64,000 nt of DNA, taken from Moniliella sp. 'wahieum' (taxonomy: Eukaryota). The notes below the pieces were generated by a model. That model did not search any database and was not told where the DNA came from. It worked only from the letters and a program-made list of their open reading frames with translations. Made by a program: the position numbers and the translations under genes. The stretch spans positions 62,001 to 126,000 of the forward strand of contig RSEE01000095.1 in the NCBI GenBank assembly GCA_003971905.1, read 5' to 3'. Positions 1 to 63,434 of this stretch are shown here, piece after piece; position 1 is the stretch's first letter; every line of letters starts with the position of its first letter.

Positions 1-887
1 TGTACCTCGGGAACGAGAATCATGCCCGGAACGCGGGTCTGTTGCAAGAGCTGGGGGTTACCTACATCCTTTCCGTGGGCGAGTCGCCGTTGTTGGCGAG
101 CGTACAAGAAGAAGGATTAGACGAGCGCTGTCTCAATCCGCACACCTTGGCTGGCGCATGGAGCTTAGGTCGTCTGACCGTGCGTGAAATCCAAGGTGTG
201 CCTGACGATGGGGTGGGGGAATTGCGATCGGTGTTAGCGCCAGCAGTGGAGTTTCTGACGGAAGCGCAACGGGCTGGCGGGTGCGTTCTGGTCCACTGTC
301 GAGCGGGTGTCAGCCGAAGCGCGACGATCGTGATGGCCTACCTGATGGCCCAGAATGGTTGGTCCCTCGAGCATGCCTATAGCCACACGCGACCCGGCGC
401 CTTGCCGTGCTCATCCAGCCCCCTTGCTGTTCTTTTGGGAACTGCAGAACTGGGAGGCCCATCTGGCCCAGACAAACCAACCCAGCAAGACCACCTGGCA
501 TAGCTTGGCAGCCAACATTGCCAAGGCAAAGTACGTTTGCATCCGATCTGAGGTTGTGGCATGGGTTAGGTTTGGATCACTAGTACTGACCCGACCGAAT
601 TGTGGCCATGGCAAATTGAATCCCAAAGCGCTCGGTACGATAATAACTCACGTCTGCCTCCCCCTCTTCCCCCTCCTCCCCCTCTTCCCCCTCCTCCCCC
701 TCCCCCCCTCCTCCCTCCTCCCTCTCCTCCCTCTCCTCTCTCCTCCCTCTCCTCTCTCCTCCCTCTCCTCCCTCTCCTCCCTCTCCTCCCTCTCCCCTCT
801 CCTCCCTCTCCCTCTCCACCCAACCGCTCCCCGTGCACTTCTGAAAACCTCGCCGCCGCTGGCGGAGGCCCATATGTATGGGCTTGA
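1..887 (+). CDS. Pps1-like dual-specificity protein phosphatase, 3' part (gene starts before the window)
   Basis: YLGNENHARNAGLLQELGVTYILSVGES, VPDDGV general-acid loop and intact VHCRAGVSRSAT (HCX5R). After a frameshift near 390 it continues LIQPPLLFFWELQNWE...TWHSLAANIAKA. Intron 531-628 (gtacgt..tactgac..aag), then NARYDNN plus a Pro-rich tail to the stop at 887. Confidence 0.85.
655..818. repeat. C/T-only low-complexity tract built from ~9-bp CTCCTCCCT-like units
   Basis: About 160 nt of almost pure pyrimidine on the + strand. Confidence 0.9.
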
Positions 888-3813: not shown

Positions 3814-6625
3814 ATGCCAGACCAATCCCTGTCGCTTGGCTTGCTCCCCCACGAACTCAAAGTGCATGTGGCCCGGATGGTGTACCTGTTGGGGCAGCCG
3901 GCATCCGTGGCCGACACATTGCACCAGTTCCCCTATCCCCAGTCCTCGGCCGGAGCGACGTGGGCAGAGACCCAGCCCATGAAGAGCAAAGTGGCCCGGC
4001 ACACACTCTGGACCTTAGGCCTGGTGAGCAAGGCATGGAACGCTGCTTCCCGCCCCTTCCTCTTTCGCGAGGTACACATCGGGTGGCCGTTCAGCTTCAT
4101 CCTTCTGCTCCGCACTCTGGGCGCGAGTCATCTCCTGGTAGCTGCCTATGATACCCTGGGAGAAGCCAAGACGGTCAATATGGACCCCACCGATCCTGCC
4201 TCCTTCCCACGCATGGTCGCTGCTGCCGGTTTTGCCCAGGCCACGGGGCACCGCATGGTGGTTGCTCTCCCGGATAAAGGCAAGGCCCCAACGACCACCC
4301 ACCCTCACGGCTTGCCTGTCCCATTTGATGACACAGCCGCCTCCTCACCTGCGCCATTCCCTGTTCGGGGCCGCTTGCTTCCGGACGATGAGGCGAGCTA
4401 GAACTCATTTGGGACGAACTATTGTCCTCCGAGGTGACTGAGACCGAGACGGACTTGACAGACGAGTCGGACAACACGCTGCGCCACGAACCAAGCCGAA
4501 ACGTTATGTGGTTGCGCTCAAGCAAGATGGATCGTTGCGGCAATGTACGCCATTCTTTCTATTCTGGGTGTTGAGTTTTCGCATATGCTAACCTGCCAAA
4601 ACAAAAGTGCATCGCTATGTACGCCTCTTGGACTTCTCCACCTTCCATACTCAAGGTCTCAAACGGACTGTGGGACAAGGTGTGGTCGCGCGCTTCGTGA
4701 CCCCTTCACGTCTTCTGGCCTTGATCACCGCGGTGCGAGAGAACCTTACCTCTTTTGCGGCGTGTGAGACGATGGACTCGGCATTGACGTTGCCCGTGTT
4801 GGAAGCACTCTTGCTCCGACCCGATGACAAAGAGGCTTCTTGGCCGTCGGAGTTGTCCCCTCCCCGCACCAGTCTGTCTCCGACGGGCCAAGAACTGAGC
4901 CGGAGTCGAAGTCGAGGGCGCACGTTTCAGCGTCGGCCAGCATCGTTGCGAGGCGTCTCGCTCGAGTCGGTCCAACGGAGACGGAGTACCTCCCTCTCGA
5001 TCCGGGCCAACCTACAAGATCCCGACGCGCCACTAGGAAAGAAGCAGCTCGAAGCACTTGACTTGTGCGGGTGTGTGAGCAGCGTGTTCCAAGCTGCCCT
5101 GATGGAATTTGTTGAGCGACACCTCACTCGCCGGACTGAGGAGCCGTTTCCTCCCCCTCTGCTCGAACGTCGTGGACGCACGCTCACGCGCACGCACCTT
5201 GTTCCGCTCCCCGATGCCGTCACGGAGGAGTCAGGGGAAGAGTCGGAAGTGTGGACGTATGGTCCAAGGCCACTGACTCGCAGCTCCACCTACACGCCCC
5301 CCCAACCTCTCGACGTCCAGGCCATGCTGCAAGGTCCTCGTGCAGCATCGATGACGGACCAGTGGCGGTCCCGCTCCATGTCCACCTCCCGTCCTCGGCC
5401 ACGGCGAAGAGCTCGTTCACACTCTTCCAGTCAGGCACGGGAAGATACTACCGTGCAGATTCCCAGTGTGCAACGACTTGGGCTTAGCGGTGTTCGTGCG
5501 CCGACCGAGTGCCTGCACACATTTATCCTTGCCTTCCCCCGACTTACCCACTTGGACTTAAGTGGGACCCTGGTAACCGACAATCTGCTGGCGTCCCTTG
5601 CGGTGGGACCGTTGGTTCTTACCGCTCTCAGTTTGGCCGAGTGCAAACTGCTCTCCTCACGGGCCATCACCGACCTTGTCCTCTCGCCCGTGTGTGCTTC
5701 ACTTACCCAACTCAGTCTCCGACGTACCACCGACGGCCCGGCCTTGACCCGAGACGATGCGCAGCAACTCTTCTCAGCCCCCTTTCTTCGGGCGCTGTGG
5801 AATATTTGGACCTAGGTGGGTGCGGGCTGGACGATGACCTGCTGGAGCTGTTACCGGCCCAAGCGCACTTACTTGACCTTGGTCTGAGCTACAACCCGCA
5901 CCTGTCTCTCACCTCGATTGCCAATTGGGTCCTGAGCCGAGCGAGGGGGGTGGAAGTTCTAGATTTGGCCTACTCGTGTGACCAGGCGGCGCAGGGGCTG
6001 GTGACTGCGAACAAACTGTACACCATGCTCCTCGGTCCGCTCGGGGAGGCCAAGCCGCTCAGTTTGGCAGACCAACTAGCCTACCTAGACCGTCCGGACC
6101 TAGTGCCCCCGCAAGAAGCAGCAAGTAACCTCCTCGCCGTGGAACTTTCGCCTGCTGTGCTCCACACGGTAGGTGCGGGCATCAGTTCTTGGCGTGCGGT
6201 CCGTGGGGCCGGCCGACGCGGATGGGTGGTGGACACACGGGCGAAACGGGTGGAACAAACTAGGAAGAACGGCGAGACGGACGAGACGGACGCATCCATG
6301 AGGGCTCGAGCTATTCCTGAGTCCAACTCACCGTGTGCAACGACGATGCCTTCCCAGGACGAATGGGACTTGGTTCTCACCCGTCCTCCCTCACCTATCC
6401 CTTCCGCTGTACCCGTTTCATCTGTGGCCCCGGAGCAGGAACCGGGGGTGCGTGTACTTCGTTCGGAACCTAGTGCTCACACCACACCTTCAAGCGCTGG
6501 CGGACAATGACTTTAACCCTGCCTCGGTCGGATGGCACTCTCATAAGATGGCCATCGTTCAGCCGGGCGCCTTTCTTGGGAGAGAAGAGGGCGCGTATGC
6601 CCATGTTGCCTTTGCCCGTTCCTAA
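3814..6625 (+). CDS. Fungal F-box / RNI-like leucine-rich-repeat protein
   Basis: N-terminal LLPHELKVHVARMV (F-box-like); HRYVRLLDFSTF...ETMDSALTLPVLEALL; LRR units LEALDLCGC, LTHLDLSGT, LTALSLAEC, VEYLDLGGC, LLDLGLSYN. Intron ~4545-4607; several 1-nt frameshifts. Confidence 0.8.
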
Positions 6626-7160
6626 CCGCCCTGGCTTCGTCCAACAAAAGGCGGTTGCAAAGTGCTTAAAGATATTATATTTGAGTGGGTGTGGCAGGCA
6701 GTGTTGTGTACCACACATGTATTTACGTGGTGGCTCCCAAATCCCTGTATTCATTTTCTCTCGTGAACGCGTAAGCCGACATCAGTTCCATTCAAAGGGG
6801 AAACGCTAGACTGCTTGATGGTCTCCCATGCATGTCGATTTGTCCGGCGTTGCTTCTGTTGCTTCGCTCGGGCAGGAAGAACTAAGAAGGAATCAGGGCA
6901 AAATGGGTCTGGCTGCGGATAGCGGTGGCACCCCACATCTTTACACCTCGCTCAAACGACCAAACACTGCAGGTTAGCGATCCTTGCCAGATAAAATGGC
7001 TATTCAGTCCTTCGTGTCATCGTCATCCACTGAGGAATGAATGGATGAAGAGTTACTTTTTGGCGTTTAGTGTACAAGTCCTTTTCGCCTCTGGCTCTCA
7101 GGCCGCGGCTGAGGTGACTTGTACCGCGGTCAGTACGCAGTATATACGCAGTACGCAGTA

Positions 7161-8024
7161 TGTCACGGGCTGCGGCGGACACGAGATGGTCCGACCGAAG
7201 CTGAGGCCCGTCTGCTCCGCACAGGCCCAGTAGAGCGTGCTCCGCAGGCCAACCGATTGTGATGGTTGGCTAAATTAAGTATCGTGGCCGAAGGGCCATG
7301 CTCAGCGCGACAACAGTCGCCTCCCGCCCAAGTCCACGTCAGCCGGCCTAAATAAGGCCACCGAGCTTCCAATGCCGTGGCGGCGTCTGCCGCCTCGTTC
7401 CCGTTTCCTTTTCCTTTCTCGGTCGCGCCTGCGGCGACCAACCCGCTTTTGACATGTCTTCCTTTCTACACCCCCTCTTGTATCCGTTTCCCTTTTGATC
7501 CTGCCTGTACCCCTGGTTGATGGGGATCTTTTCCCCCCCTTCCATTCTCGTCCTTCTCGTCCTTCTCGTCCTTCTCGTCCTTTCTCGTCATCCTCTCGCC
7601 TTCCCGTCTATCCTGTCCGGCTCCTGCCCGTTTCCAGCCAATTTATCCAGTACAGGCAGCTTCTCTTGTTAGCGTCCGACTTCTCCTCCGACCTCGTCCT
7701 CCAGCCCTTCGTCAGTCCAATCGCGCGAGCCCTCCTCTGGTCGCGGCGATTCCCAGTCTCTGTTGAGGCAGTGTTTGTCCGCCTCTGCCTCCTCCCGTCC
7801 CTAAGTCCCGGAGGCTTCAGACACGTTACTACGGCCCAAGCCGGTGCAGACGCAGCCTTGCCACACGTGCAGCCCCCCACCAAAGGCCTCTCCTCGTCCC
7901 TAGCTCCGCTCGGACGCACCAACCAGCCTAAGCCCGAAACTACCGTGAGTCGACCTACCGTCGCCTAAGAGATTGTACCCCAAAACCCCCAGGGCGGGCC
8001 CCCTGGCGGCGCCCGCCCGTGACA
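7161..8024 (+). mobile_element. Solo LTR, copy 1 (864 bp)
   Basis: Starts TGTCACGGGC and ends GCCCGTGACA (10-bp perfect terminal inverted repeat, TG..CA). 5-bp TSD CAGTA at 7156-7160 and 8025-8029. Homologous along its length to the reverse complement of 48683-49510. Strand is assigned only relative to copy 2. Confidence 0.9.
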
Positions 8025-11953: not shown

Positions 11954-14900
11954 ATGTCCACCCCCCCTCCCCTGGCCCTCTCCTGGCCCCGGGGACGGCA
12001 TGCCCGACCTGGTCTATGCCCTGTACGACTACCACTACCACCCCCCGCCCCCGGCCAGACCAACTGCCTGCCCCTCGTCGCCGGCGCCCAGATACTCGTG
12101 TACAACCGCCACCCAGCGGCTGGTGGGACGGCGACATGGACGGGCTCCGCGGCTGGTTCCCTAGCAACCATGTAGCCTCCTTTGACCAGATGCTGCCCCG
12201 TCTCCCGCTCCCATCATCCGTGCCGGATCCCGACCCGCCCCAGCCCACCACCGTCGCGTCCCGAGCCATTACCACTGCTGCATGCGCCTCACCGCCCACG
12301 TCGGGCACACAGGCGGTCTCTCTACCTTGCCGATGCTCGTGTGTTGCGTGTGAGCGTGCGTTCTGCTCTGGCCAGCATCCACTGTTGCATAGCGACAATG
12401 TCGACCTACTCACTCCTACCGTGGTTAGCCGGCGTAAAACCCTGTTAGCTAGCGTACATCGCCTGCTCGATCTCGTAACCAACTCGCGACACCCCCGATC
12501 CATTATTCCAGTCGCCCAATTTGGAGACTGAGTTGATCAACTGTGCCCATCGCATCATCTCGGCCATGGGAGACGTGCTGGACGCAATGCCGACCAGGCA
12601 GATCAGGAGGTGCAGACTACCGCTGCCGCCATCGCTTCCAACATCGATCTGCGAACTCAGATCCGGACCCAAACTCAGAATCAACCCCAAACGCTCACGT
12701 CCCTTCCGACCAAATGGTCCACACTGTCCTTGAGATCGCCCGAATGCGTTTCAAGCGAAGAAAAAGGATCGATAGACGTGCACGTACAAAGGATCAAGGA
12801 GGCAACTGAGCTTGGCGGTTGCCTGTCCTCTCTTCCACTGCTGTCCTATCTCACGTACGCGCCAGCGCACTCGCCCGCTCCCAACCTGCCTTGGACGTGT
12901 CGTATCGGAACCGCAGGGAGCATCGTCCTCGTCGGAACAGCTGGTGGATGCGACGACTGGTCGTGTACGATGGGATCCACCTACTTATCTATGGTTTGGG
13001 ACCGACTTGTTGGGACCAGCAAAGCAGTCGGGGCCACGGAAGCGCCCATGGACGCGCCCTCGCGTCCCTCCGTCTGTCTCGGTCCGAGTTTGTCCAGGCA
13101 TCGTCCAAGTTGTTGGTGCGGTGCGCCAAATGACGGTGATGGATGCCGGAGGCGAGGCCGAGGACTCTAGCCAAAGTATCGCCTTTGGCTGCGCGCAATT
13201 TCGGCCGCTTCGGAACTTGGGCGGGTCGGGGAGGAAGTGGTGACCCAAGTGACGGATTTGATGGAGCTAATCCAAGAAGACAAGCCAAGCTTGTCTTGCT
13301 CTCCTCCTCGCCGATAGACCATCTGCACGAACCACTCCGCCCCGACCTCGACCCAGGATCGCTCTCGGACGACGGGGGGCTTCACCGGCGCAAACGAGAC
13401 CGTGGCCAGGCACGTTTCGCTCGTGTCGACGACCCGGACGAAAAGTTATAACCTTACACCCTTGCATCAACAGCTTTCTCCACGAGCAATCGAGACCCAC
13501 CTCCACACGCCCACGCCTCACCACGTTCAACCTGCAGCACCCCCGGCAGTACAAGTGGCACCACCACCACTACCCACTACCGCCACTACCGCCGCCACGT
13601 CTTCTTCTTCATCCCTCGAACCCATGACGTTGCTCCGCAACAAACTCGCCCTCCGTCCGGCCCGGTCGAGCTCAACGTCTTCGACGGTCCCCCGCGGGCC
13701 GGCGTGGAGAGTCTCACACGTGTGCGACGACGATCAGGGTTCCCACCGGAAATGCCCAAGTCGCTCGCACGTGACCGCGCCGCGTCAATGAACTCGACCG
13801 TCCCTCCCCGAGCGCGCCCGAGCCGCATCAAGGGAACTCGGCCGCCACTACCACGATCGTCCCCGGGCCGCGTCAAGGGAACTCGCCCGCCCCTCCTACG
13901 AGTGCCCCCTTCAGCACCTGTCGATAGGGGGGTACTGTATAATCCGGAAGGTTCCTTCTTGGAGGTACCTTGGACGGCTTGTTGGATGCCTAGTGCTCCC
14001 CATCGCCCTATGGACACTCAGTTGGCCCAACGATTTGTTTGACCCTGCCATCTTTTGTCATGCGACTGAGGTGGCGCAACGTCTTTTGGTACGTGGACCC
14101 ACGAGCGCCAAGAGCTACCCGGACCAATATCCTCTCGTTTGTCCGGCTCTAGATGTCAGATGCGTTCTGGCGGCCGGACCTGGACGAACCAAAGTTGTTG
14201 CCCACCCTAACTCAGCTTGCTACGTTGGCGGGCGCGGCGGATTTGTTGGCGCTCATCACGCGTAGGGCAACGGGCAGCAAACGAGCTCAGATGCGGATCG
14301 TGCTAGGGACTGACGCCCCGCGCCCCGAGTTGGTCCGGTGCATTGACCCGCCGCCCTCGATCAGTCGACTGAGGCACTCTATACGTCCGGCTGGTCGACC
14401 TCGGGAGCGCCCAATACCAATGTCAGTCGTTCGCTCTTAGCTCGGTTGGCGAAGGGACAGCGAATGTGATGGATGTGGTACGGGCGAGCTGGCACGGCAG
14501 TTGAACTCGTGTAAGCCGTTGTATGCGTCAATCACGCCCGAGCAGTTTGGGCCAAGTAGCGCCGCTTAAGACCTCGATTTCGCGCTTCGACCATGTGGGG
14601 GCGAGGATGAACTGGCCCATCAACACCTCTCGGACCTGAGCAACCAGATTGCCCAGTGGGTCCAAACCACCATCTTGGCTACGACACGGCCAAGGAACGA
14701 CAAAGACGCCCTGCTGTACTTTCTCAAACTTTCCGCGTACGTCTCTTTCCCCTCCTCTCCCCTTTGCCATTGTCTTCACTGTGTGTCTCAAACACAAGAC
14801 AGATCACCAACGAGACCCAAGACAAAACGTACTAACCTCGAATCTGATACAGAAATGCCTGCTGCTACAAAACCTGCACGTCTTCTTTTCCCTCCAAAGC

Positions 14901-15640
14901 GGTCTGGGCGCGGTGGCGGTACGTCGTCTGCACAAGACATGGAAATTGTTGCCGGTCAAGTACAAGGAGCGGGCCAGGTGTACGAGGCAATGACTCTGCC
15001 GGGCCGCAACTTTACCGAGTACCGAAACCTCTTCCAAGATGCGCTCCGAACCCGGACGCCCTTTTTGCCCTTTGTCGCCATTGCAGCAGGAGACATTGTA
15101 TTTACCTGCCAAGGCAACGGGCCTACGCGGCGCGTGTCTGGATCGTCCGTGGGGTCGGGCGAGATGATCAATTGGGTCCGGTACGATCGTCTGGCACGAG
15201 TGGTGGAGGATTTGGTACGGGTGCAAAGGCAGTTGTATGCGTTGCAAGCTGTGCCAGATGTGCAAAGTTGGCTTACCACGTGCCTGGAGGCGAGCTCAGA
15301 AGGGATTGAAGACCTGTACCAACGTTCGGTCTTGTTGGAACCTCGGGGGACCCCACCACCGCTCATCATGGCCCCTCCGACACCCTGTCGCCTACTTCGA
15401 CGCTACCGAGTACTCCGGGTGTGCCCACCCCGCGCACCTTCGACTCGACCACCTCCGCATTCACTTACACTTCCACCTCCACAGAGGCCTCGACCCCGAC
15501 CTCAATCCCCTTATCCCCCCCTGGTGCGGACCCACATGCCTTCTTCCCCGCCCCAGCATTTCCGCCTCGGTCGCATCTCGCTGAACCCCATTCAGCGCTG
15601 TCCTTATCATCTCCTCCAACTCTCTCATCTGCGCCTATAA
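11954..15640 (+). CDS. SH3-REM-RasGEF (Cdc25/Ste6-type Ras guanine nucleotide exchange factor); heavily frameshifted, possibly pseudogenising
   Basis: SH3: VYALYDY..ILVYNRHPSGWWDGDMDGLRGWFPSNHV. RasGEF motifs: ELARQL, LSNQIAQWVQTTIL, AVRRLHKTWKLL, RNFTEYR, PFLPFV, MINWVRYDRL, LYQRSVLLEPR. Intron ~14736-14852. 3' end uncertain. Confidence 0.8.
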
Positions 15641-16445: not shown

Positions 16446-16617
16446 TCTCGCACATCTCTCCTCCTCCTGTCTGGCGTAGATCCATGATCCGTCATCGGTT
16501 ACGCGGTACCCCCCAGCCACAAACATTGACACCAGTGCATTGCAGCCCCCAACACACGCACACATCGAGTTCCCATATCTGCTTGATGCATGTTTCTTCC
16601 GCTGGGGCGCGGCGAGC

Positions 16618-18393
16618 TCATTCCATCGGACGCGCAAGCTCCAGGCGGAGAGAAAGGGCCAAGGCACAGGCGGCATCCCAAGTCTCCTGCCACGTTGTAA
16701 ACTGCGCCAGCGGCGCAATGCGAATAATGTCAGGCGCGCGCGTATCCCCAACCAGGCCAAACGTATGTTCCGCAGTGTGCAGCGTGCGAGCTGCCAAGCT
16801 ACGTGGGTCGATAGGCGGCGGGGGCGGAGCGTCAATGGCAGTGTGCGAGGGCGCACGTTGGGCTTGCGCCGCAACAGTTGACGAGGACGGCTCGGGGATC
16901 CGGATGCACAGTTGCGATCCACGCTCTTGGGGGTTGCTCGGCGTCACAAGGTGAGCCCCCGCTCCGGCGGGCAAGACGGCAGGCGAGGCAGGGTCGCTCA
17001 GCAACCATTCCAAGTACGCCGTCAGACGTAAACTACGAGCTCGCAGCACGGGCATGATCTTCCCCGCCCCAGGAGAGGGAGAGACCGAACCCGAACCCGA
17101 ACCCGAACCCGGAACGTCCTCCGCCTCGGCCTTGATGAGCGCGGGGGCGGTAGCAACCGCCTCCAGTGCGCCCTCGAGCGCAGCACAGTCAATCACCGAC
17201 GGGTTGGATACCACCCACCCGGCTGCCCCTACCTCGGGCACATACCCATCCGGCATGGCAAAGCGGGAAGAGAGGTTATGACCAAACCAGCCAGCAGGGC
17301 GGGGTAGCTGGGTTGGGTCAGCGGCCAAGGCATGCCACCGTTGGTGCACAAACAGACCTGCGATCGCACCCGGCCCAGCTGAGCCGTACTTGTAGGTGCA
17401 CCAGCAGGCAAAGTCCACCCCCCACTCGTGCAAGCGCATCGGCACATTTAGGAACCATGCGCACAGTCCCACCCGACAACCATGCCGTGCTGTTTGGCGC
17501 GCTGGGTAATCGCGCCCATATCGAAAAATTGCCCGCTGTACTGCACCGCGGGCAGGACAACCAGTGCCGTCTCGCCCTCGGCGCCAAGCTGGTCCAGGCG
17601 GGCCAACACGTCGTCCGTGCGCAGCGTGGCCTCGCCCTCGCGGGGATGCAGAGCCACCAACGACGTTTCGGGTCGCAAACCCGCAAGCAGCACAACACTT
17701 TGCAGCGCATACTGGTCTGACGGGAACGCTCGTGCCTCGTACACGATCTTGTGCCGCCGCTTGCCCGCAGGCACTTGCTTGGCCACCGCGGGCGTGAGCA
17801 ACGCCTCGACGCCGTGCGGGTGGGTGAGCGGACGGTAAAACGTGATGAGCAGGTTGAGCAGGTTCTGGGTCAAGCTGCCCATCACAGTCACCTCGTCCCG
17901 CTTGGCACCCACCAAGTCAGCCACCACAGTGCGCGGCGGATCGAACATGGTAGCCCAAGGCGCCTTGTCAGGGTGGTCAAAGTGACCATTCACCCCACGC
18001 TCCGCCCACACGTCCAACTCGCGATCCACACGTCGCTTGACCGCGAGCGGGAGTGGACCCAAACTGTTCCCGCACAGGTACCGTGCCGTCTGGCTGGCCG
18101 AGGCGGGCAGCAGAGTTTTGGGCGCGCGTGCTGCTCGGTGGACCAGGCTTGGGCCACCCACGGCTCAGCGCGGTCGGGCAGTTGGGCCGGGTACGCGCCA
18201 ATGGGGCCCATCTGCGGAAGCGCATACGCCTTGCGCAACTGGACCAGCGGGTCGGCCTGGTCCAGCTGCTCAGCAAAGTCACGCGAGGCCGGATGGGCGC
18301 TGGCGGCGGCGAGGGACTGGATGAAGGCGGCAGGGTCGAACTGGTCGTTGGCGTGGACAGAGCGATCCAGGAGGCAACCAGCGCGTCGGTCAT
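16618..18393 (-). CDS. BNA5: Kynureninase (PLP-dependent, de novo NAD biosynthesis)
   Basis: YLCGNSLG, EARAFPSDQYA, VQYSGQFFDM, VGWDCAH, LHEWGVDFACWCTYKY..GPGAIAGLFVH, ERGSQL, DIIRIAP. Split by frameshifts. Confidence 0.93.
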
Positions 18394-34361: not shown

Positions 34362-37300
34362 ATGTCACCAATCGACCCCAACCACCATGCACCACGACCC
34401 AGCCCCCACCCAGACGGCACCTGGGGCCTCTACCACCCCGACCTGACCTTGTACCCCGTCCTCCCCATCCCGCCCATCCCTCCCGCCCACTACACACCGT
34501 CGGTCGTTGTGCGGCGCATCACTGCCGCCCAGTACGCGTCGCTTCAGCGGCAATTTGACCAAGCCGAGGTGCCTGGCCCCATTGTCTTCCCCTGGCTCTA
34601 TGGCGCCAACCAGCACCAGCACCAGCATGCATGCACGCCCGACCTTACGGATCTGTTGCATACGCGTCCGCGGGGCGTAGAGCCGCCGAAGTTCCGGGGA
34701 ATGGTCACCCTTCGTGCTGACATGCCCGCACCTCACGACATGTTCCTCGGTACCGCCCCGGCCGTCCACCTGTCTGTGCCTACCTCTTCCACTCCGCACG
34801 GTACCTGCTCAGAAGGGGAGGAGGAGGAGGAGGAGGAGGAAGAGGAGGATGGATGTCTCCTTGCTATTCCCACCCAGTGGGAAGGCCCAGGATCCATCAG
34901 TACACTTACCTCGTCCATTGACAGTCTCAGTCGGTGTTCGGGCCGGTTGTCGTTCGGTGAGCGCGTCAGTGTGGGGTCGACGACCAGTATGGACACTGAT
35001 AGCGAATGGTGTTCGCCCTTGTGCAAGACAACCGAGCTGGATGAAAGTAAAGAACACGACGATGGGTGGTTGTGCCAGATGGCCTCATCGGGCACGACAC
35101 CAAGTATCTCACCCTACCCCCCCTCGCTCTCCCATGCCCTTGCACACTCAAAGTTTGTGTGCCATTCGCGCGGCTTGGCCGGGGGAGAGCAGGATACATA
35201 TATCCCCCAACCCAGTCATTCCCTGTTGGTGGATACCTCCGATGCGCGAATGATTCTTATGCACCGACGGCCGACACTGGCAAACCAACGGGGAAGACCG
35301 GTTCCAATGTTTCCAATGCTTCCAATGCTGGCTTTCAGACCGTCGGCTCTCCCCTGGTCAATGGGGTGACGTGCCCACGGACACACTGGGCATATCCGCC
35401 CGTTTCCTCCCCATGGCTAATAAACCGCTGACGCCAGATGCTTTGTACGACCTGCACAACTTTGCAGGACAGCCTACTCTCTTTTCGCGCATTTCTGATC
35501 TCTTCATCTACTGTCCCGCGGGTCTTCACAGCGGTATGCTTCAACTTGCGCAATGGGTTGCGCAGGCGCAGCAGGCCCAGCGGCACGAAGTAGCTTCAGT
35601 GTGGGGCGAAGCGGCTGCGTCGATGGAGTACAATGTGTTTGTCATTGAAGATGCATTTGATGCGTTCGAGCGCCATTTCCCTTCGCTCGTCGAGGTCGGT
35701 GCCAATGGGCAAGTACATCGTTCTCTTGATTTTACCGAGGACGAACGGGAACTGTTGTGCTTGCTCTCTCAAGCTACGGCAGTGTCTCCTAACGTATTCG
35801 TACGTCTTCTCCGTGACCATAAGGTAAACCCAATGAGGGTTGTGAGGCTAACCTTCTTGGCTTGCGGTAGATTGGCGGCCCTGGCGACGTACCACAAGGG
35901 TACTACGAAGATGGGCAGGCTCAGGTGGACAACCCAGCTGGGTATGCGATTATCATCCATGCGGAGTATGGTGCGTGTACGGCGGACCAGAAGGAGCTAT
36001 ACCATTCGACTCGATACTTGGAAGAAACAGAGGCACATGTGACCCAAGCGCTCCTGGAAGACCATTTGGAGATGAGCAAGGCAAATGCAAATGCAAATGC
36101 AAATGCAGCTACAGATGCAGATGCAAATGGCGACACTGTTTTGGTCCCAGCGGAAGAAGTGACAGCATCCTGTCAACGCTACTGCCAAGGGGCCGGTGCT
36201 CTGAGTGAGCTATATTGTACCGCTTGTGCACCTACCGACTCGGTATTGGAGGTGGACAAGGTGATCGATATGGTCTTGTGGCTACACCATATGGCCGAGC
36301 AGATTTCTTTGCCAGCGAGCAAGGTGCCAATCTATGTGGGTCCACCTCCGCTTCCATTTCGCCTGCTCCGCTGCCCAGTCAATGGAGCAAAAAGATTCTA
36401 ATTTACTCGGAGGATGGGTACACGGGCACATCTATATTGATGCTTACCTGGCTCATGTACCGCTACTCTTTCAACCTACCTCCTCGCGCCATTATCTTTG
36501 CCCACACCGAAGCACTTCGCGAATTTCACCTGCAGCCGAGTCAGGTCCTATTTCTGCGCACCATCGAAGCAAGGCTGCATGAACGACTGTGTCTCGGCCT
36601 GACACCTACCCAGCAGACACCGTCAACCAGCCACGGCACCAGTTCCCTTTCCCATCGCCGCGCTCGGGCGTGTTGACCGACAGTCAAATCGCCGAAGAGT
36701 GTGTGCACCTTTGCAGTGCATCGTTCTTGGGTCCTACTGTGGAGGAAGATATGGTCATTGAAGGGGAGTGGATCAACCACCCTCAATTTACCGGCTCGCT
36801 TGCCTCTCGTATCCTGCCCAACCTTTACCTGGGAGGGACGGAGCACGCGTGCAATGCTGCTCTGCTCTGTGCGCAGGGTATAACTCATGTTCTCTCCGTG
36901 GGCGAGTCGGCACTGGTGCAATCCAAGCCGCACGATACCACGCCCGACGGTCGACCTGATCAAACCACGCTCTGGGGTGCCCATGCACTAGGACTGGTAA
37001 ACGTGTACGAACTGCCCAACCTACCCATCCTGCCCAGTCTGGCTGAGGACGAAGTCCACCCTCTGGCGACCACGTTGGCCCCAGCGGTAACTTACATCCA
37101 CAACTGCATACAGCAAGGGGGTAAGGTCCTTGTGCACAGCCGTTCAGGCACCAATCGCAGCGTGACCATCCTCTTGGCTTACCTCATGGCCTATCGCGGT
37201 GTATCACTAGAAGATGCGTACTCGTACGTGCGCTCCCGTCGGGTCGGCAGGCAGATTGAGCCCAGCTTACTCGGCTTGTGGGAACTGCGTACCTGGCATA

Positions 37301-37566
37301 TGCACATGCACAGGTACGCGCACATGCTGTTGACTCGTCCCCACGTCCTCAGGACCGACTCGGGCGGGATGACGGAAGACCCGGTTCAAGCCCAGGCTCA
37401 ATCCGTCGACCCGGACGCGGACGACGCGGAGACCGAATTTGGACTGGGACTCGGACCTTACGACGCAGACGACGCGCACACGCCTGTGCGCCCTTCTTGG
37501 TTGTCCCTCGTGTGCTGTTGGCTCGAGCCAGTAGGGTCCGGTACGGTGTTGAAGCTTGAAGGTTGA
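34362..37566 (+). CDS. Full-length Pps1-like dual-specificity phosphatase paralog with catalytic Cys replaced by Ser (predicted pseudophosphatase)
   Basis: IVFPWLYG, GISARF..LHNFAGQ..SDLFIYCP, degenerate first domain KILIYSEDGYTGTS, then FTGSLASRILPNLYLG..ITHVLSVGES..VLVHSRSGTNRSVT..YVRSRR..IEPSLLGLWEL. Intron 35800-35870. Confidence 0.85.
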
Positions 37567-39077: not shown

Positions 39078-39555
39078 TTACTCGTCGTCCTCCTCCTCCT
39101 CTTCCTCCTCGGACTCCTCCTCAGACTCCTCCTCGGCCTGCTTCTCGAGGCAAGCGACCGCAATACGGTCCAGGTCACGCATGCCGTCCTGCGAGATCCG
39201 ACGACCACCTTAGGGTCCTTCTCGAGCACGCCAATGCTCTCCAGGGCCTGGACGACCTTACGCTGGACCGAGCCCGAGGCGTCAGCGTGCTTCGAGGGAC
39301 GGTACCCACGGTTCTGCGCACCACCCTGGTACTTCTGCAGCGCACCAATACCAACGCTCTTGCGCAGGTAAATGTGCCGGGCAACAGCGGCGGCACGAAC
39401 GTAGAACCACGTCTCGTCGTACGGAGCAAGCTCCTTGTACGCACCCGTCTTGACAATGTCAACCCACGTCGGCAACTCATCTTGCCCGAGCGACGGAGGT
39501 GCTCAGCGTACTCCTGGATGAACAGGTCGGCAGCAACGTCACGAACGTTAGGCAT
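39078..39555 (-). CDS. RPS19: 40S ribosomal protein S19 (eS19)
   Basis: MPNVRDVAADLFIQEYAEHLRRSGK..PTWVDIVKTGAYKELAPYDETWFYVRAAAVARHIYLRK..GRRISQDGMRDLDRIA plus an acidic tail. Two 1-nt frameshifts; probable 5'-UTR intron 39561-39724. Confidence 0.97.
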
Positions 39556-40811
39556 GGTGGCTGCACAGCGGACCAAGAGGTAACAGGGAAACAGGTAACA
39601 GGTCAGTCTGACGAGGTCCGGGCAGGGCACTGGCGCGCTACACAGGCAGCGCATGCGCACAGCGGAGGACATAGCATGGCCCGGCACGGGCGCGCCGAGG
39701 GCCAGGAAAGGGTAGGAGACGCACTGGATACTGAGGTAGCTTGGCGGCAACGGGTAACGGGTAACCTCTTGTCGGCAGCGGCAAAGCAAGTGGAGCGGCC
39801 AAGGGACCCAGGCGGCGGTGGACGGGTCGGGTTGCGGGTGTTGAGCTTGCGCCGTGTGCCGCAGCATTTAGTAGGGTTGGGTCCTTTTGTTTTCTTCTTG
39901 TCCGATGATTGATGTTCGATGTTCGATGATCGTCATTCAGCGTAACTTGCAGTATGCACGTTGCACCGAGCGCCTTTCCGCCCACAACAGCGGAAGGAGG
40001 GGTGGGATTGTGTGGGGTATACAGCCAGGGTTGCTAGTGCATGATGCATGATGCATGAGCATGAGGATCTGAGATCTGGATCTGATGATCGATGATCGAT
40101 GATCAACGAGATTGGAGGGGCCTCAGATCTCAGATCCACCAACCCCCTCCCTACTAGATTACCATGCCCCCTGCTCACTTTGGGCTTCAAAGCTTCCTTG
40201 CAGCCCACTGAGGATGGCCGCCTGCCTTGAAGCTTGACCACCGACCCGGATCCGTGTCGTCCGCAAAATCGGTGTCCGATCCTATGTCCAACTGGATATG
40301 GGCAATGGAGTTTCTCTCACTGTGTGGGCACAGGCACAGGCACAGACACAGACACACCAAACCCCTCTGTTGATTCGCCCAATGAAGATTTGACATTTGC
40401 CTCTATACAACAGGAGCAGTCGACGCTTTGTGCTTGTTGGCCACAGGCGCACAAAGGTGCTATACCACAAAGCAACAGGAGAGCTTGCAACTAACAGACA
40501 GATTATCGGGAGCGATTCCAAGGCAAGCAGGGGGGATAGAGTAGGAAATCAGGGTATATAGAGGGAGAAGAAACGAGGGTGGTAACTAGTAGTAGGAGTA
40601 GGTAATAGGGAGGAGGATAGGCAGTTGAGATGGAAATGCGGTAGTGGAGGGGAGTGGGTAATGCCGGGGGGCAAAAAACGTCACCCGATCGTCAGAATAC
40701 GACTCACGTTGGCAATTTTGGCAAGGGACTGAGGCGTGACAAAAACGTTTTTGGTACTGTAGCAAAGGCAAAAGAAAGAGAGAGAGAGAAGGGGACGTTC
40801 TTCAAGTTGGT

Positions 40812-55118: not shown

Positions 55119-55481
55119 GCCGTGCTCTTCATTATAATGCGTCCTCAGTCCCTATACCTGCCCCGTAGTGTCCCACAGACGGGACAATCCCCAGGGCATA
55201 GTGACTAGAGTGACTTGTGACTAGTACTAGTGACTGTTTTTGTAACGCTGCTGACTCAGCCTCAGCCGGCGGATCTTTTGCTGCATGAAATTTGCAACCT
55301 CCCACGGCGGTTGCAACATTTCAGCTGGCTGGCAATTCTTGGTCCGAGGCGAATTGAACATTACAATTTGAAACTTGAAGCTTTGAAGGAAGCAATTGGC
55401 ATCCGATCCGCCGGATTGGCTCCTGCCGTCGTCTGCGTCTGCGTCTGCGTCTGCCTCGCCGCCTCCGCCAGTCAGCTCAGC

Positions 55482-56191
55482 ATGTCGCAGGCCCAGAAGA
55501 CCACGCTCAGCCTCTACCGCGGCTTCATCCAGGCCTCGCGTCAGTGGCCCATTGACAAGATCCGCAAGGACCTGCAGTTTGGCGATGCGCTGCGTGCCGC
55601 TACCCACCGAGCCTTTCTCCGTTCCCCGCCGCCCGAGTCGCGCCTCATGGACCGTACCGACGAGGCCGAGAAGGCGGCGGGTAAGATCCACATTGTTGGT
55701 GTCTACACTCCTCGTACCGAGTCTCAAAATTCAGGCAAGCATCGTTGGACTTCGCTCAAGCTCATTGACGATGAAAAGATCCTCGAGGGCGGCAAGAACT
55801 TGCGCACAATGAGTGAGGAAGAAATCAAGTACGCCAAGCGCTCTCTCCATAGCCTCCAACTCATCCTCAACAACAGGCCCTCCCAAAAAGTACGTTTTGT
55901 TCGTTTTGTTCTACCCATGTCTATTTCCTTTTTTTGGCTCTGTTCGATTTGGTTTGTTTGGCGTTGGTTTGGGTTTCCTTCCCTCGCCTCCCTTGTTCTT
56001 CTTGCACTCACACCACGTACCCTACCCAGTTCCCTACGCCGGAAGAAGTGCTGGAACCACCGAGCATGCCAACCTACTACGCCAGATTGCGTACCCAGGT
56101 GGGCTACGCCGAGCAGGGCAAGGCGCCACCTGCTTTGACCTTCGCCCAACGAGTCAAGATCTTCATGGGTTACCGGCCTCACCAGGTCTAG
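55482..56191 (+). CDS. CBP6: Cbp6/UQCC2-like cytochrome b assembly factor
   Basis: LYRGFIQASRQWPIDKIR..FGDAL..SLHSLQLILNN..(intron 55890-56029)..FPTPEEVLEPPSMPTYYARL. Confidence 0.7.
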
Positions 56192-57063: not shown

Positions 57064-59345
57064 ATGATGGCGGTTCTGTCCGTGCGCGTTCTTACCAGCC
57101 AAGCAGCTGTTTGGCCAAGACGACTCTGACTCGGCGGCATGCGACCACCAGGGGCACTCACTTCGATTCCATTTCGCCACTACTCTTCCCGTTCGTCTTG
57201 CCTGTCCTCCACTCTGCCCGCGCCTCCGCTGCCGCCTTGCTTCCATCTCCACCTCCGCCTCCGCTCTGTGCGCACCCCACCCGCACCCCTGATTCTCACG
57301 TCGAGGACCCGGCCACTCCCGTTTCTTTCTCGGTCCCCACTCGCCTCTGCCTTCGCCTCGACATCGACTTTGACCTCGGCTTCTGCGCCTCGAGCCCCTC
57401 TTTCCCCTTCGTCTACCCCCGCTACACCTCGTCACATGATACCGAAAACGCCTACCGACATCGATCTCGGCCTCGAACCCATTGAGGCGCAGATCTGCCA
57501 GCTGCTCGACGACACGTGCCAATGGATCCAAGCTACTCACCCGATCCTCTCCCCGGACCTGGAGCCAGAGCCCGACGCGGATGGCAACCGTCCTCCCACT
57601 GCGGAAACGCGCTGCAAGCGAACGAGTGGAAGTGCGAGGCGCGCATTGCTGGTGGATGGGTGCGCGACAAACTGGCCGGGTTTGCTTCGGACGATATGGA
57701 TGTATCGCTTTCGAGTTTGACGGGTTTCATTTTGCCCACTATCTCAGGCTCTACCTTGAATCGGACGCGTTTCATCAGTCTCCGCTCTGTGCCCAGATTG
57801 CCGCTCTTCCCAACAACACAGCAAGGGCGCTATGGGTACCATTAGCAAGATCGAAGCCAACCCGGAGCAGAGCAAAAACCTTGAGACTGCCACTGTAACC
57901 GTGCTGGGCCGGTCGCTCGATTTTGTCAATCTGCGCAAGGAGACGTACCTCAAGAACAGTCGGATCCCAATTCAAGAATTTGGCACGCCCGTCCAGGACG
58001 CTGAACGGCGGGATTGCACCATCAATGCGCTCTTCTACAATGTGCACACACCGTGTGGAGGACATGACGGGCAAAGGGTTATCCGACCTGGCGCACGGCT
58101 GTATCCGTACCCCTCTCGAACCTTTCCAAACCTTTGAAGATGACCCGCTGCGCATCCTGCGCTGTGTCCGCTTTGCTAGCCGGTTCGCATTCACCTTCCA
58201 CCAGGACATTACCGCCGTCCTGCTCGGCCCGCGCGGTAAGGTCTTGCGACAAGAGTTGGCCTCCAAGATCAGTCGCGAGCGGATCGGGATTGAGACAGAT
58301 AAGATGCTACGTGGGCCGCACCCTGCTCTTGCGTTGGATCGGTTGCATGCACTTCAGCTCTTCCCCATCGTCTTTCGTCCTCCTCCAGAGCATGATGGCT
58401 CGTCTTCCCCTCTGTATGTGGCTAACTCTACCGCCACCGCCACCGCCACCACCGAACCCGTTGTGCCGTTGCGCTCGGACGAAGAGGCTGTGGCGTTGGC
58501 AGCCCGATTGGACCAGATTTGGCGGGATGCAGAGAAAGCCCATGAGGCGGGGACCCCGCCTTCGGCTCGGAGCGCACCTCTGTTTGATCCCGAGCAACGG
58601 CGTCGGTTGTTTTATGCCGCGCATTGTGGCCACTGGCGGGACTAGTGACGTGGACCCATGCTGCGGAGACCAAGGGGAAAGCGGGCTCAAAGGCTCCGAA
58701 CGCAGTTTGGTTTCGGCGACCGAGGTGGTGTTGTGGAAGGGCTTAAGCTTGGTGCGAAATCGAGCAAGGAACCGGTCGAGGCGCTGTTGAAGGCGTTGCT
58801 GCGCTCGCTGAGTTCAAGACGTGGGAAACGGATGCGAGGCAACGGGGCGACAAGTTGGAAACGATTCAGACGCAGCTGTACTTTGTACTGCGCAAACCCT
58901 GCTTTGTCAACGAGGCCTACCACCTCTCCCCCGCCTCAGCCTTCATCTTTGCTGCGCTGGCGCATACTCATTCGGGTTCGGGGGGGTTGGACGCCCACCT
59001 CGCCTCCCCCACCGACTTGGACCGCTGGTGGAGCTGGATCGAGGAGCTGGAGATGGTACGGCGTGCGACGGACCGTCCACTATTGAATGGACTACAGATC
59101 CAAGACCTGGTCGGCTTCGCACCGGGCCCGCTATTCCCGCCATCCAACACCACGTCCTGGAATGGCAACTGTGGAACGTCGCGCCCGACGCTACGGCCGG
59201 TCCTGCTGCCTCGGCAGTCGCAGCGGCCCAAGCGTGGTTCCGCCCGGCCTGGGACGCAGGCGCCATCTTGCCCCCCGACGAGGTGGCACGGGCCCAGGCG
59301 GCGGCAGCGGCCAAGGGCGCCAAGAAGGCCAAGAAGAACGCTTGA
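57064..59345 (+). CDS. CCA1: CCA tRNA nucleotidyltransferase
   Basis: ARIAGGWVRDKL..DDMDV, IEANPEQSKNLETAT, DFVNLRKETY, FGTPVQDAERRDCTINALFYN, TFEDDPLRILRCVRFASRF, KISRERIG. Frameshifted; start codon uncertain. Confidence 0.93.
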
Positions 59346-60798: not shown

Positions 60799-61155
60799 AT
60801 GTCGATGCCCCGCAAGCCCAATGTGAATGAGATGAAGCTCCGCCGCCTGACAGAGAACAATGCGCGGCTACAAGAAGACCTGGGTCGGCCGCGCATTCCG
60901 GTCTCGGAAGCTAGCCAATCGTACGTGGATCTGCTGCTCTGGATGTTCTCTTCGAGTTCTCATCGATCTTCGATCTCCGATCTAACCCCCTTTGGCTTCT
61001 TCCTCTGCACCCATGAACGTTGAACGCAGCTTAGTGGCCTATTGCCAAGCCACGCGTGACCCCCTCGTCCCTTCGGTTTGGGGCGTAGTGGACAAGAAGG
61101 ACGATCCTATGCCCCGAAACAAGTTGCTACCGGATGCGAGTGCACCATCATGTGA
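60799..61155 (+). CDS. Heterotrimeric G-protein gamma subunit (Gpg1/Ste18-type)
   Basis: [51 protein letters not shown](Y)[14 protein letters not shown] with a CAAX box after one frameshift. Intron 60921-61029. Confidence 0.92.
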
Positions 61156-61872
61156 GGTATACGGCGGATCTACCTTGGTTTTGGCTGCCAGGCGCCTAGT
61201 TCGTGGGCAGGGTGGCGTTTGGCATGCGGTACCTCTCCTGCCCAATTTGCCCAATTTGCCCACCTGCTGCCTATCGCCTAAGGTCTACCGGAGGATCAGT
61301 CAAGCTTGCCTGCCGTTGGGCTCTGTCGGTGGCCTGGCATGCGTCACCTACCCCACTACCTACCTTTCCATGCTCGGAAGTTATCTGTTGTCGGCATCTT
61401 CCGTCACTAGTCACTGGTTACCAAGGCTCAACTTCCAGTTCGGGAACCCCTTTTACCTCTCGCATTTCCCTTTTGATACCATCATCTCTTCTCGCTACAT
61501 CAGCCCTGATCCTCTCTCAGGACCATCTGTCTTCAAAATCGGTTGGCCGCGTTCCACTATCTTCTTTCAACGTCAGACCTCACGTTCACTTACCACTTAC
61601 CCACTCCTTCCAGAGGATCGACCTCCTCCACTTCATTGTCTGACCATGGTTGTCATTCCAAGCAATGGGCAAAGAAACTGTTTCTCTTCATCCCATTGTT
61701 TTGTCCTACGGCAGCAGGTAATTGTGGCAACAGCAAGCCGTCATCCAACTCCAAGAAGGCAATTTATAGACATGGGATTCAACTTGATTTGTGTGCGTCA
61801 GAGGGAAAGGAGATACCAAGCCTACGCAAAGGCACCGGTCCTGCTTCACCCCCCCCCCACTTTCAGCTAACT

Positions 61873-62903
61873 CTACTCCCAGTAGGGCTTCATGTAGACC
61901 TTGAGGACCCCGGTTTCGATGCCAGCGGCATCGATCTGGTGGATTTCCGCCTCGGACAGTTGATCACCCGACTGGAACAGCGTCAAGATTTCCGGCAAGC
62001 GTTTTTGCGGCTGGGTCGAGGTGGTAACAATGATCCCGTTGGTCTTTTGACGAGCCCAGAGGTGCAGGACGCCAGCCTCGGTGCCCCGGCTTGGCCTGGG
62101 CAATGGCCGTGACCGCCTTGCGGATCGGACTGTCAGCCGACACGCTCTTGTGCGTCAACGGTGCCAGCGAGGCGTACACGGCAATTGTGATTCCGTGCGC
62201 GCGCGCATAGTCCAACGTTGCACGCGTCTTGTCGTCGCCCCACAACAGGGGGTGGAACTCAATCTCGTTGAGCTCGATCGGGTACTTGGGGTGCGCGTCA
62301 ACCACTTGTTGCAAATCAGGTGCAAGCCAGTTGCTGACCCCAATGGTTCTAGCACAGCACAAAAGTCAAATCGTTAGTCAATCGTTCGCCAATCGTTAGC
62401 CAATCGTCCCCATCCGCTCCGCATCCCAGCGGGCGAAACGAATCCAGCACATTCTCCCCACATTCGCCCAACACTCACTTGGTCACTCCTTCATCGCGCA
62501 GCGCCTCCAGCGCGTTCCAAGCCGCGAGGTTGGTGGGTTCGCCTCCCTTACCGCGCGGCGGGTGGTGGAGGAGGAAGGCATCGAGAGCCGAGACTTGGAG
62601 GTCAGTGCGCTCCTTGCGGCCCGAGGCGAGGATGGCGTCGTGGCCGTCCTTGATGGGGTTGTTGACCTTGGACAAGACATAAATGTCGCTGGGCGGGATG
62701 CCGCTGTTGCGGATCCCTTCGCCGTTGGAAGCCGAGTTGCCATAGACCTCGGCGGCGTCGACACTGCGGAAACCGAGCTGGAGCGCTTCGGCCACAATGG
62801 CGCTCGAGGGCTTGTTGTAGAGCGCGGTGCCGCTGCCAAACGATAGCACCGGGGCGGGCTTGGTAGGGTTGGAGGCGAACGTGATGGACGGGATGGAAGG
62901 CAT
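61873..62903 (-). CDS. Aldo-keto reductase
   Basis: FGSGTAL, GFRSVDAAEVYGN, YVLSKV, LDAFLLHHP, WNALEALRDEG..TIGVSNW, NEIEFHP, YASLAPL. Intron 62349-62478. Confidence 0.92.
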
Positions 62904-63434
62904 GGTCAGTGCGATGGGAGCAAGGGGTGGTGGAGGGGAGACACGAAGGAGGTTGCGGCGTATGGACGGAAACCACCCAGCCGAGCACATGACGCCATGG
63001 CCACCAACCAATCGCACACGCCCAATTGGATCTAACCCTGCCAGCATGATCAGGGCTGCCGCTACTGCGCCAATAAGTCCGAGTTGCTGACTAGCCCACT
63101 AGTCAGGCGAAAGACGCTGGCGCTGACGCGCTGACGAGCGTCTGTAACGTGCTGCAACCTGCGGCAACACCCGAGCTCTCAATCTGATCAATTGGACTGA
63201 ACGTATTTCAAAGTGAAAGAGCTTGGGCCGGTTAAACGTTAACAAGTCTGTTAATGTTGTAACCCCGGTAACCCGGCAACCCCGTGCCCTCGTCTCGTTC
63301 GCTCTCGCACCTCTCGTTGCCGGCCCCCGACTCCTACCAACAGGCTCCTCTCAAGCAATCCTAAACTTCGGGGAGGGGGGGAGGTAACCTAGCGCCTCTG
63401 GGTGCAGCACACCTTACAGACACCAGTCATGTTA

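Follow-up and report, generated by a model that had tools for sequence, protein, structure and literature searches.

The Pps1-like gene F and its surroundings

The window analysed here is a stretch of 64,000 nucleotides from Moniliella sp. 'wahieum', located on a contig designated C95. It contains a gene, which we call F, that is related to the fungal phosphatase Pps1 and carries serine in place of the catalytic cysteine of its C-terminal DUSP domain. A second copy of F lies on contig C97. The following parts of F can be distinguished:

34362..35799, plus strand: exon 1, with ATG at 34362; N-terminal region, a possible rhodanese/CH2-like fold interrupted by a disordered insert, placed by alignment to the full-length relatives P0003 and P0009
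35800..35870, plus strand: predicted intron of 71 nt (GTACGT...GCTAAC...TAG)
35871..37559, plus strand: exon 2, with the internal pseudo-DUSP domain, the dead C-terminal DUSP domain, a C-terminal helix and the stop codon TGA at 37557-37559
36401..36433, plus strand: internal DUSP-like domain, degenerate loop IYSEDGYTGTS; the versions of this loop that are most frequent in the family have no catalytic Arg
36766..37320, plus strand: C-terminal DUSP domain (Pfam DSPc), fold predicted to be intact
37015..37059, plus strand: D-loop, ...SLAEDEVH in place of PDDGLQ; six residues are inserted (three in C97), and the probable general acid Asp is replaced by Glu
37132..37161, plus strand: P-loop VHSRSGTNRS, with Cys changed to Ser, Ala to Ser, Val to Thr and Ser to Asn; His, Gly, Arg and Ser retained
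37237..37278, plus strand: N-loop region, RRLAVLIQPTLLFF changed to RRVGRQIEPSLLGL, and to RRLGRQIKPSLLGL in C97

The P-loop is encoded by GTG CAC AGC CGT TCA GGC ACC AAT CGC AGC, where the serine is AGC 37138-37140; the C97 allele reads GTG CAC AGC CAT TCA GGC ACC AAT CGC AGC and has the same AGC. Residues LAEDEVH (37039-37059) constitute the acid loop. These readings agree with an initial annotation of this DNA, which had listed VHSRSGTNRS, the AGC codon and the acid loop AEDEV. An active DUSP has HCX5R as its nucleophile motif and a DDG general-acid loop; F has HSX5R, and EDE replaces DDG, in both haplotypes. The general-acid Asp of the D-loop was picked by spacing, which we presume to be the same as in other DUSPs. 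The His, Gly, Arg and Ser of the P-loop plus the two following Arg are retained in both copies, and the Pfam DSPc scores are 72.4 bits for the F domain and 74.8 bits for the copy at the start of the window (cut-off 33.5). The context of ATG 34362 is common to F and its C97 copy. The 3' end had been placed at 37566; homology of the C-terminal motif locates the stop at TGA 37557-37559. Short tandem expansions occur at 34810-34850, 36081-36122, 37015-37041 and 37296-37330 (poly-Glu, Ala-Asn, a 9-nt D-loop unit and His-Met), and the haplotypes differ there mostly by whole codons.

A Pfam scan covered 103 of the 111 long ORFs of the window. The features annotated besides F are:

1..887, plus strand: 3' end of a further Pps1-like gene (paralog C), with Cys and DDG intact and a probable intron at 531-628; the bulk of the gene lies upstream of the window
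14570..15640, plus strand: RasGEF (Pfam)
16614..18101, minus strand: kynureninase-like gene (Pfam KYNU_C)
39078..39560, minus strand: RPS19, convergent with F, in three frames here and in a single frame in C97
42881..44209, minus strand: PH_10, Cdc24-like (Pfam)
55221..56138, plus strand: UQCC2/CBP6 (Pfam)
57899..58645, plus strand: poly(A) polymerase RNA-binding domain (Pfam)
60986..61870, plus strand: G-gamma, below the cut-off (Pfam)
62475..63098, minus strand: aldo-keto reductase (Pfam)

At 6562-7425 lies a repeat of about 865 bp, of which 38 scored copies with 87-98% identity are spread across the assembly (677 candidates), some of them about 2.36 kb apart on one contig. The repeat may be an LTR or a mobile element of small size; terminal repeats were not found in it.

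Six Pps1-like genes and a block duplication

Searching the organism's own genome, an assembly of 223 contigs and 69.5 Mb, yielded 22 matches, which resolve into six gene pairs with a DNA identity of 91-97% inside each pair:

Paralog A, contigs C74/C78: P-loop VHCRVGVSRSST
Paralog B, contigs C70/C11: P-loop VHCRVGVSRSST
Paralog C, start of the window (C95) and C97: Cys-bearing, P-loop VHCRAGVSRS
Paralog D, contigs C52/C84: P-loop VHCRAGVSRS
Paralog E, contigs C6/C83 (loci L053/L054): P-loop VHCHAGVSRS
Paralog F, this window (C95) and C97: P-loop VHS(R/H)SGTNRS

The family is thus not limited to an active and a dead gene forming a pair, as had been proposed; each haplotype has six Pps1-like genes, five with Cys and F with Ser. 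Judged by their motifs, we infer that the Cys paralogs are catalytically active. The copy at 1-887 has DDG and VHCRAGVSRSAT, as described in the initial annotation, and two frameshifts near 390-425 which are absent from C97. C95 and C97 are treated as haplotypes, since the distance between C and F is similar on both contigs and the surroundings of F can be aligned for 9 kb. If they were instead the homeologs of a hybrid, the argument would not change.

A FastTree phylogeny was computed from 51 Pps1-like sequences and 595 columns, the organism's own copies being entered with X at breaks. In this tree, the branches of A and B are short, and both fall with two proteins inside the Ustilaginomycotina, separate from Tilletia and Thecaphora. 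The other four paralogs share a single clade with long branches and the topology (C,(D+P0003,(E,F))), supported at 1.00; its basal placement may be due to long-branch attraction. This clade is fast-evolving, comprises four paralogs and was found only in this genome and one relative. DNA comparison gave 73-74% identity over 2.9 kb between F and E and a short match only between F and C; the synonymous distance of E and F is about 0.55-0.83.

The flanks were compared by blastn, since tblastx of the flanks gave mostly noise. RPS19 faces each of D, E and F, and a homolog of the kynureninase-like gene was found upstream of paralog E (matches to L053 and L054), which makes it a second marker of the duplicated block. 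As E is the sister of F and shares these neighbours, F arose from the duplication of a block with RPS19 and not by tandem copying. Tandem duplication of F from the copy at 1-887 is ruled out by the tree, the DNA identity and the flanking genes. Nor is there support for the special tie to this neighbour that had been suggested, as no gene of the derived clade is more distant than C and the sister E is found on C6/C83. RPS19 matches occur at 9 places in the assembly, a hint at repeated duplication of blocks or of the whole genome. E has His for Arg after the catalytic Cys (HCHAG), a state common to the C97 copy of F, and otherwise keeps the three loops; the first change in the pocket therefore predates the split of E and F.

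Domain architecture and predicted fold

The AlphaFold2 model of the C-terminal DUSP domain of F reached a pLDDT of 87 and a pTM of 0.86, values that lean on an alignment of active relatives. In Foldseek, this model matched DUSP1, DUSP7, MKP-2 and DUSP22 at E about 1e-10, and the DUSP fold is predicted to be retained. For the model of the relative P0003, the comparison with STYX (2r0b) gave Z 17.1, rmsd 2.3 and 146 aligned residues.

In this family, the middle region forms a further DUSP-like domain, as indicated by an hhalign comparison with the C-terminal profile (probability 97%, E 5.4e-11). In a motif census, its loop has Ser for Cys in C to F, and the commonest versions in the family lack the Arg. 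Since there is no Cys in either DUSP domain, F has no catalytic Cys at all. In 1997, Ernsting and Dixon reportedly described an inactive phosphatase-like domain that precedes the active domain in Pps1, which the internal domain of F fits. The N-terminal region, which may resemble the CH2 domains of MKPs, folds with good confidence in the model of P0003; fold searches with the whole model were filled by the C-terminal DUSP domain, so that the N-terminal fold was barely sampled. A rhodanese identity of this region is suggested by weak Atlas leads (scores 0.81 and 0.79) with no Pfam match, and an hhalign comparison of its profile with both DUSP profiles gave no match.

Changes are concentrated in the pocket loops

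Polarised with D and P0003, F-specific changes affect 15 of the 33 sites in the D-, P- and N-loop and 13 of 144 other DUSP sites (Fisher p 4e-6, with loop limits that were drawn after the alignment had been seen); in the aligned N-terminal part the count is 23 of 384. The corresponding numbers for E in the same three site sets are 1, 5 and 15, i.e. only 1/33 in the loops. A partly independent check on this enrichment is provided by 21 columns that are invariant in 81 relatives. Five of them are altered in F (P0003 numbering: D908, G910, C939, V943 and Q979); every one belongs to a loop, and the ten columns outside the loops are unaltered. Several loop changes required two bases in a codon (GTC to ACC, GTG to AGG, TTC to GGC). 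Between the haplotypes, the DUSP domain of F differs by 14 synonymous and 4 non-synonymous codons and by a 9-nt indel in the D-loop; the four lie in or beside the loops, and the scaffold counts are 12 synonymous and 1 non-synonymous. Several loop states are unfixed (R/H, V/L, E/K and the length of the insertion).

In DUSP22, D57, S93 and N128 tie the three loops together, and the mutant S93N has a KM of 8.8 versus 0.64 mM, a substrate binding weakened about 14-fold (sections of PMC7589817). The P-loop Asn of F aligns with the Asn of this mutant loop, HSLAGVNRS. By analogy, the Ser-to-Asn exchange in F probably weakens binding in its pocket.

Frame breaks

The initial annotation described the domain as one long open frame. 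This holds for the C-terminal domain (36583-37566) only; the gene as a whole is spread over several frames and contains a predicted intron. At five positions (35256, 35366, 36299, 36672 and 37515) this contig alone lacks a single base; neither C97 nor either E copy has these deletions. Relative to intact relatives, each of the 12 Pps1-like copies has 4-24 frame breaks, some of them at introns; F has 5 in this copy and about 7 in C97. Frame-breaking haplotype indels amount to 6.2 per kb in F and to 5.1-14.9 in the five Cys pairs. RPS19 of the window, spread over three frames while the RPS19 motifs of C97 lie in one, serves as a gauge of assembly indel errors. Mostly private indels in all 12 copies and in this RPS19 are typical of assembly error, which site by site would look the same as real decay.

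Two breaks occur at the same position in both F copies. One is upstream of the ATG, the other is the intron 35800-35870, whose splice signals are whole in both haplotypes; a frame break is also found nearby in D and E. In addition, a 1-nt gap at 35151 relative to E is common to both F haplotypes and is offset here, though not in C97, by a 2-nt difference at 35121. A real shared break at 35151 would not be compatible with constraint downstream. In the C97 copy, a codon is missing from the helix that follows the P-loop (37168-71). Neither F copy contains a stop codon. Among the haplotype indels of at least 3 nt in the coding span of F, 9 of 11 are multiples of 3, and F has the most in-frame indels of the six pairs (9 versus 2-3).

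In an error-prone assembly, the serine codon itself could be an artefact, with TGC as the true codon. AGC is found, however, in both contigs, whose F copies have diverged to dS 0.065; T was called in both E copies in the same context GTGCAC_GCC, 14 more loop changes are shared and the errors seen are indels. An artefact is extremely improbable, and the earlier rejection of a single base-call error holds.

Selection after loss of the cysteine

As both haplotypes have Ser, all divergence between the two F copies postdates the loss of Cys. The comparison used 736 codons whose frame is supported in both copies; codons near breaks, indels and the intron were masked. The two copies differ by 35 synonymous and 29 non-synonymous changes, corresponding to dS 0.065, dN 0.018 and dN/dS 0.28 (bootstrap CI 0.17-0.47). 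This ratio is conservative, since substitution errors raise it. For the five Cys pairs, dN/dS ranges from 0.07 to 0.32, so that F lies within their range; its dN of 0.018 is the highest of the six pairs. In a neutral simulation with 64 changes and the observed transition bias, the median ratio was 0.82, none of 400 runs was as low as the observed value and stops arose in 367 of 400. At kappa 8, the result was again 0/400.

A maximum-likelihood codon model (571 columns) assigned omega 0.18 to the F tips (p 6e-7 versus 1) and 0.31 to the F stem, where it does not differ significantly from 1 (p 0.09, no clock constraint). Earlier partition tests had fixed branch lengths, thereby overstating significance, and are superseded by a joint model that assumes equal E and F stems. 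In the joint model, the loops have omega 1.45 on the stem (p 0.2) and 0.86 on the tips (p 0.79; 27 codons with 3 non-synonymous and 1 synonymous change) versus 0.03 on other branches. The values for the scaffold are 0.52 on the stem and 0.06 on the tips (p 3e-5), those for the N-terminus 0.21 and 0.18 (p 9e-6); for both partitions, stem and tips are below 1 at p 0.003 or less. These results, obtained from two haplotypes of one genome, indicate that F has been maintained by selection after the loss of catalysis. The proposal of a natural, catalytically dead DUSP of the Pps1 type is thus supported: Cys is gone in both haplotypes, and purifying selection followed.

Relatives and known pseudophosphatases

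F aligns to P0003 over residues 7-1046 at 48% identity and groups among basidiomycete Pps1 on a long branch. Ser at the nucleophile position was found in 3 of 184 aligned proteins (186 examined), namely F and two crustacean DUSPs. A second census counted Cys in 154 of 155 outside proteins; it dropped 23 of 179 fetched proteins (domain uncuttable or no RR motif) and counted P0003 apart. The crustacean proteins (P0141, P0175) contain several tandem DUSP domains with HS for HC, are of unrelated origin and are possibly multi-domain pseudophosphatases. An ortholog of F was detected neither among 33 longer and 7 near-length matches nor among the best 150 of 4861 representatives (proteins of at least 179 residues); it could sit in the 50% cluster of P0003. 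In metagenome scans with the F domain and P0003, 0 of 73 and 0 of 44 pattern matches were confirmed.

F is homologous over its whole length to fungal Pps1 (S. cerevisiae Pps1, N. crassa DSP-1 and relatives in Thecaphora frezii, Tilletia and Tilletiaria), sharing the internal Arg-less DUSP-like domain, the C-terminal DUSP and the motifs SRILP-LYLG and RSRR. Unlike these, F has no catalytic Cys, and its acid loop and N-loop are rebuilt. MK-STYX (STYXL1, DUSP24; FSX5R) is likewise a Cys-to-Ser DUSP that keeps the Arg, and is described as acting by protein binding (sections of PMC8622459); a rhodanese/CH2-like region ahead of the DUSP domain may be a further point in common. In contrast to MK-STYX, F originated independently from Pps1, is young and confined to one lineage, retains the His and has an additional pseudo-DUSP domain; it is known from sequence alone. 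STYX (Cys to Gly), a structural neighbour of the F family, is a catalytically dead DUSP and competes for a kinase with an active phosphatase (PMC8622459, in part) and keeps the three-loop residues (PMC7589817, in part), which F lost. That F is an ortholog of STYX or STYXL1 is rejected by its position as sister of the Cys-bearing E (support 1.00), in a tree that contained Pps1-like sequences and not STYX.

Fungal CC1/DUSP pseudophosphatases were catalogued in 2026, comprising Styx1, Oca1/2/4/6 and lineage-restricted Yvh1 variants; lineage- and even strain-specific loss of catalytic residues was described there (main text of PMC13216928). They share the fold class with F and differ in subfamily, and 'pps1' has 0 occurrences in the main text of that paper, supplements excluded. 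PMC6479966 and PMC3931568 mention Pps1 briefly in the sections consulted; the latter, citing Ernsting and Dixon 1997, states that deletion of Pps1 in yeast has no effect on growth. A literature search by title and start of the abstract, with subscription papers and supplements outside its scope, returned no Pps1 pseudophosphatase.

Interpretation of F

The best explanation, to which we assign a probability of about 0.55, is that F is a lineage-specific Pps1 pseudophosphatase which is kept for surfaces outside the pocket and binds partners of the five Cys paralogs. The sequence shows that its history began with the duplication of a block containing a Pps1-like gene and RPS19, from which the sisters E and F descend. 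Along its own branch, F exchanged its nucleophile, the probable general acid and a large number of further residues in the three loops; afterwards, purifying selection acted on the DUSP scaffold and the N-terminal domains, with none detectable in the loops. The protein would fold, would be unable to hydrolyse phosphate, as there is no Cys in either DUSP domain, and would bind phospho-residues poorly. The surfaces for which it may be retained are those of the rhodanese-like N-terminus, of the internal pseudo-DUSP domain and of the rear of the DUSP fold. F most likely would bind partners or substrates of the five Cys-bearing paralogs, damping or localising their action as a docking competitor or anchor, like STYX for ERK. 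A role as competitor had also been suggested initially and is possible through docking surfaces outside the pocket. A point against this reading is that the phosphate-cradle residues His, Gly, Arg and Ser are kept, as a trap requires.

F might instead be a dying duplicate that persisted for some time after its activity was lost; at least one haplotype would by now hold only a pseudogene, and the low dN/dS would reflect past constraint. The 5 and about 7 frame breaks of the two copies, the shared gap at 35151 and the codon lost in C97 fit such a fate, as do the dN and in-frame indel count that top the six pairs, the redundancy created by five Cys paralogs and the lack of an ortholog among the proteins searched. 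We nevertheless consider it unlikely, because its rate of frame-breaking indels is within the span of the Cys pairs, because RPS19 is broken here and whole in C97, and because an omega of 0.28 with no stops is seen in divergence that lies wholly after the Ser. Moreover, decay would not spare the scaffold while striking the loops.

Cys-to-Ser mutants of phosphatases are used to hold substrates. PDB entry 4woh is an example, and F had accordingly been proposed to be a natural phospho-substrate trap, whose pocket would go on binding phosphorylated targets of the active paralogs and so protect these. The retained P-loop residues with the two next Arg in both haplotypes and the fold predicted to be intact are in line with this. 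A trap, however, needs a preserved pocket; in F, 15/33 loop sites are changed, the D-loop insertion differs between haplotypes and loop omega is about 1. The equivalent of S93N weakens binding in DUSP22, and conserved pseudophosphatases such as STYX retain the three-loop residues (sections of PMC7589817), which makes a trap improbable. It is similarly doubtful that positive selection remodelled the three loops into a new non-catalytic binding site for another ligand or partner, through which F, with its two dead domains, would regulate the five active paralogs. The stem omega of 1.45 in the loops, the two-base codon changes and the fall of scaffold omega from stem to tips, as after a shift of role, point in this direction; but 1.45 is indistinguishable from 1, and the new loop states are unfixed between haplotypes. 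Were the loops rebuilt in this way, F would represent a pseudoenzyme shortly after its birth and the first pseudophosphatase derived from Pps1, and with the active sister E as control it would allow a direct test of the change from phosphatase to binder.

Returning to F as a pseudophosphatase kept for surfaces outside its pocket, what appears to be new is its origin from Pps1, as DUSP pseudophosphatases are well known and lineage-specific fungal ones have been catalogued (main text of PMC13216928). The example indicates that a natural Cys-to-Ser change alone does not make a substrate trap. Within one genome and an error-prone assembly, F looks like a recently born non-enzymatic regulator. With the sister E, the outgroup D and two haplotypes, it offers an evolutionary snapshot in which selection leaves the pocket and stays on the fold and the N-terminal domains. 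The constraint that is retained argues that Pps1, a poorly understood phosphatase, may have a non-catalytic function worth keeping.
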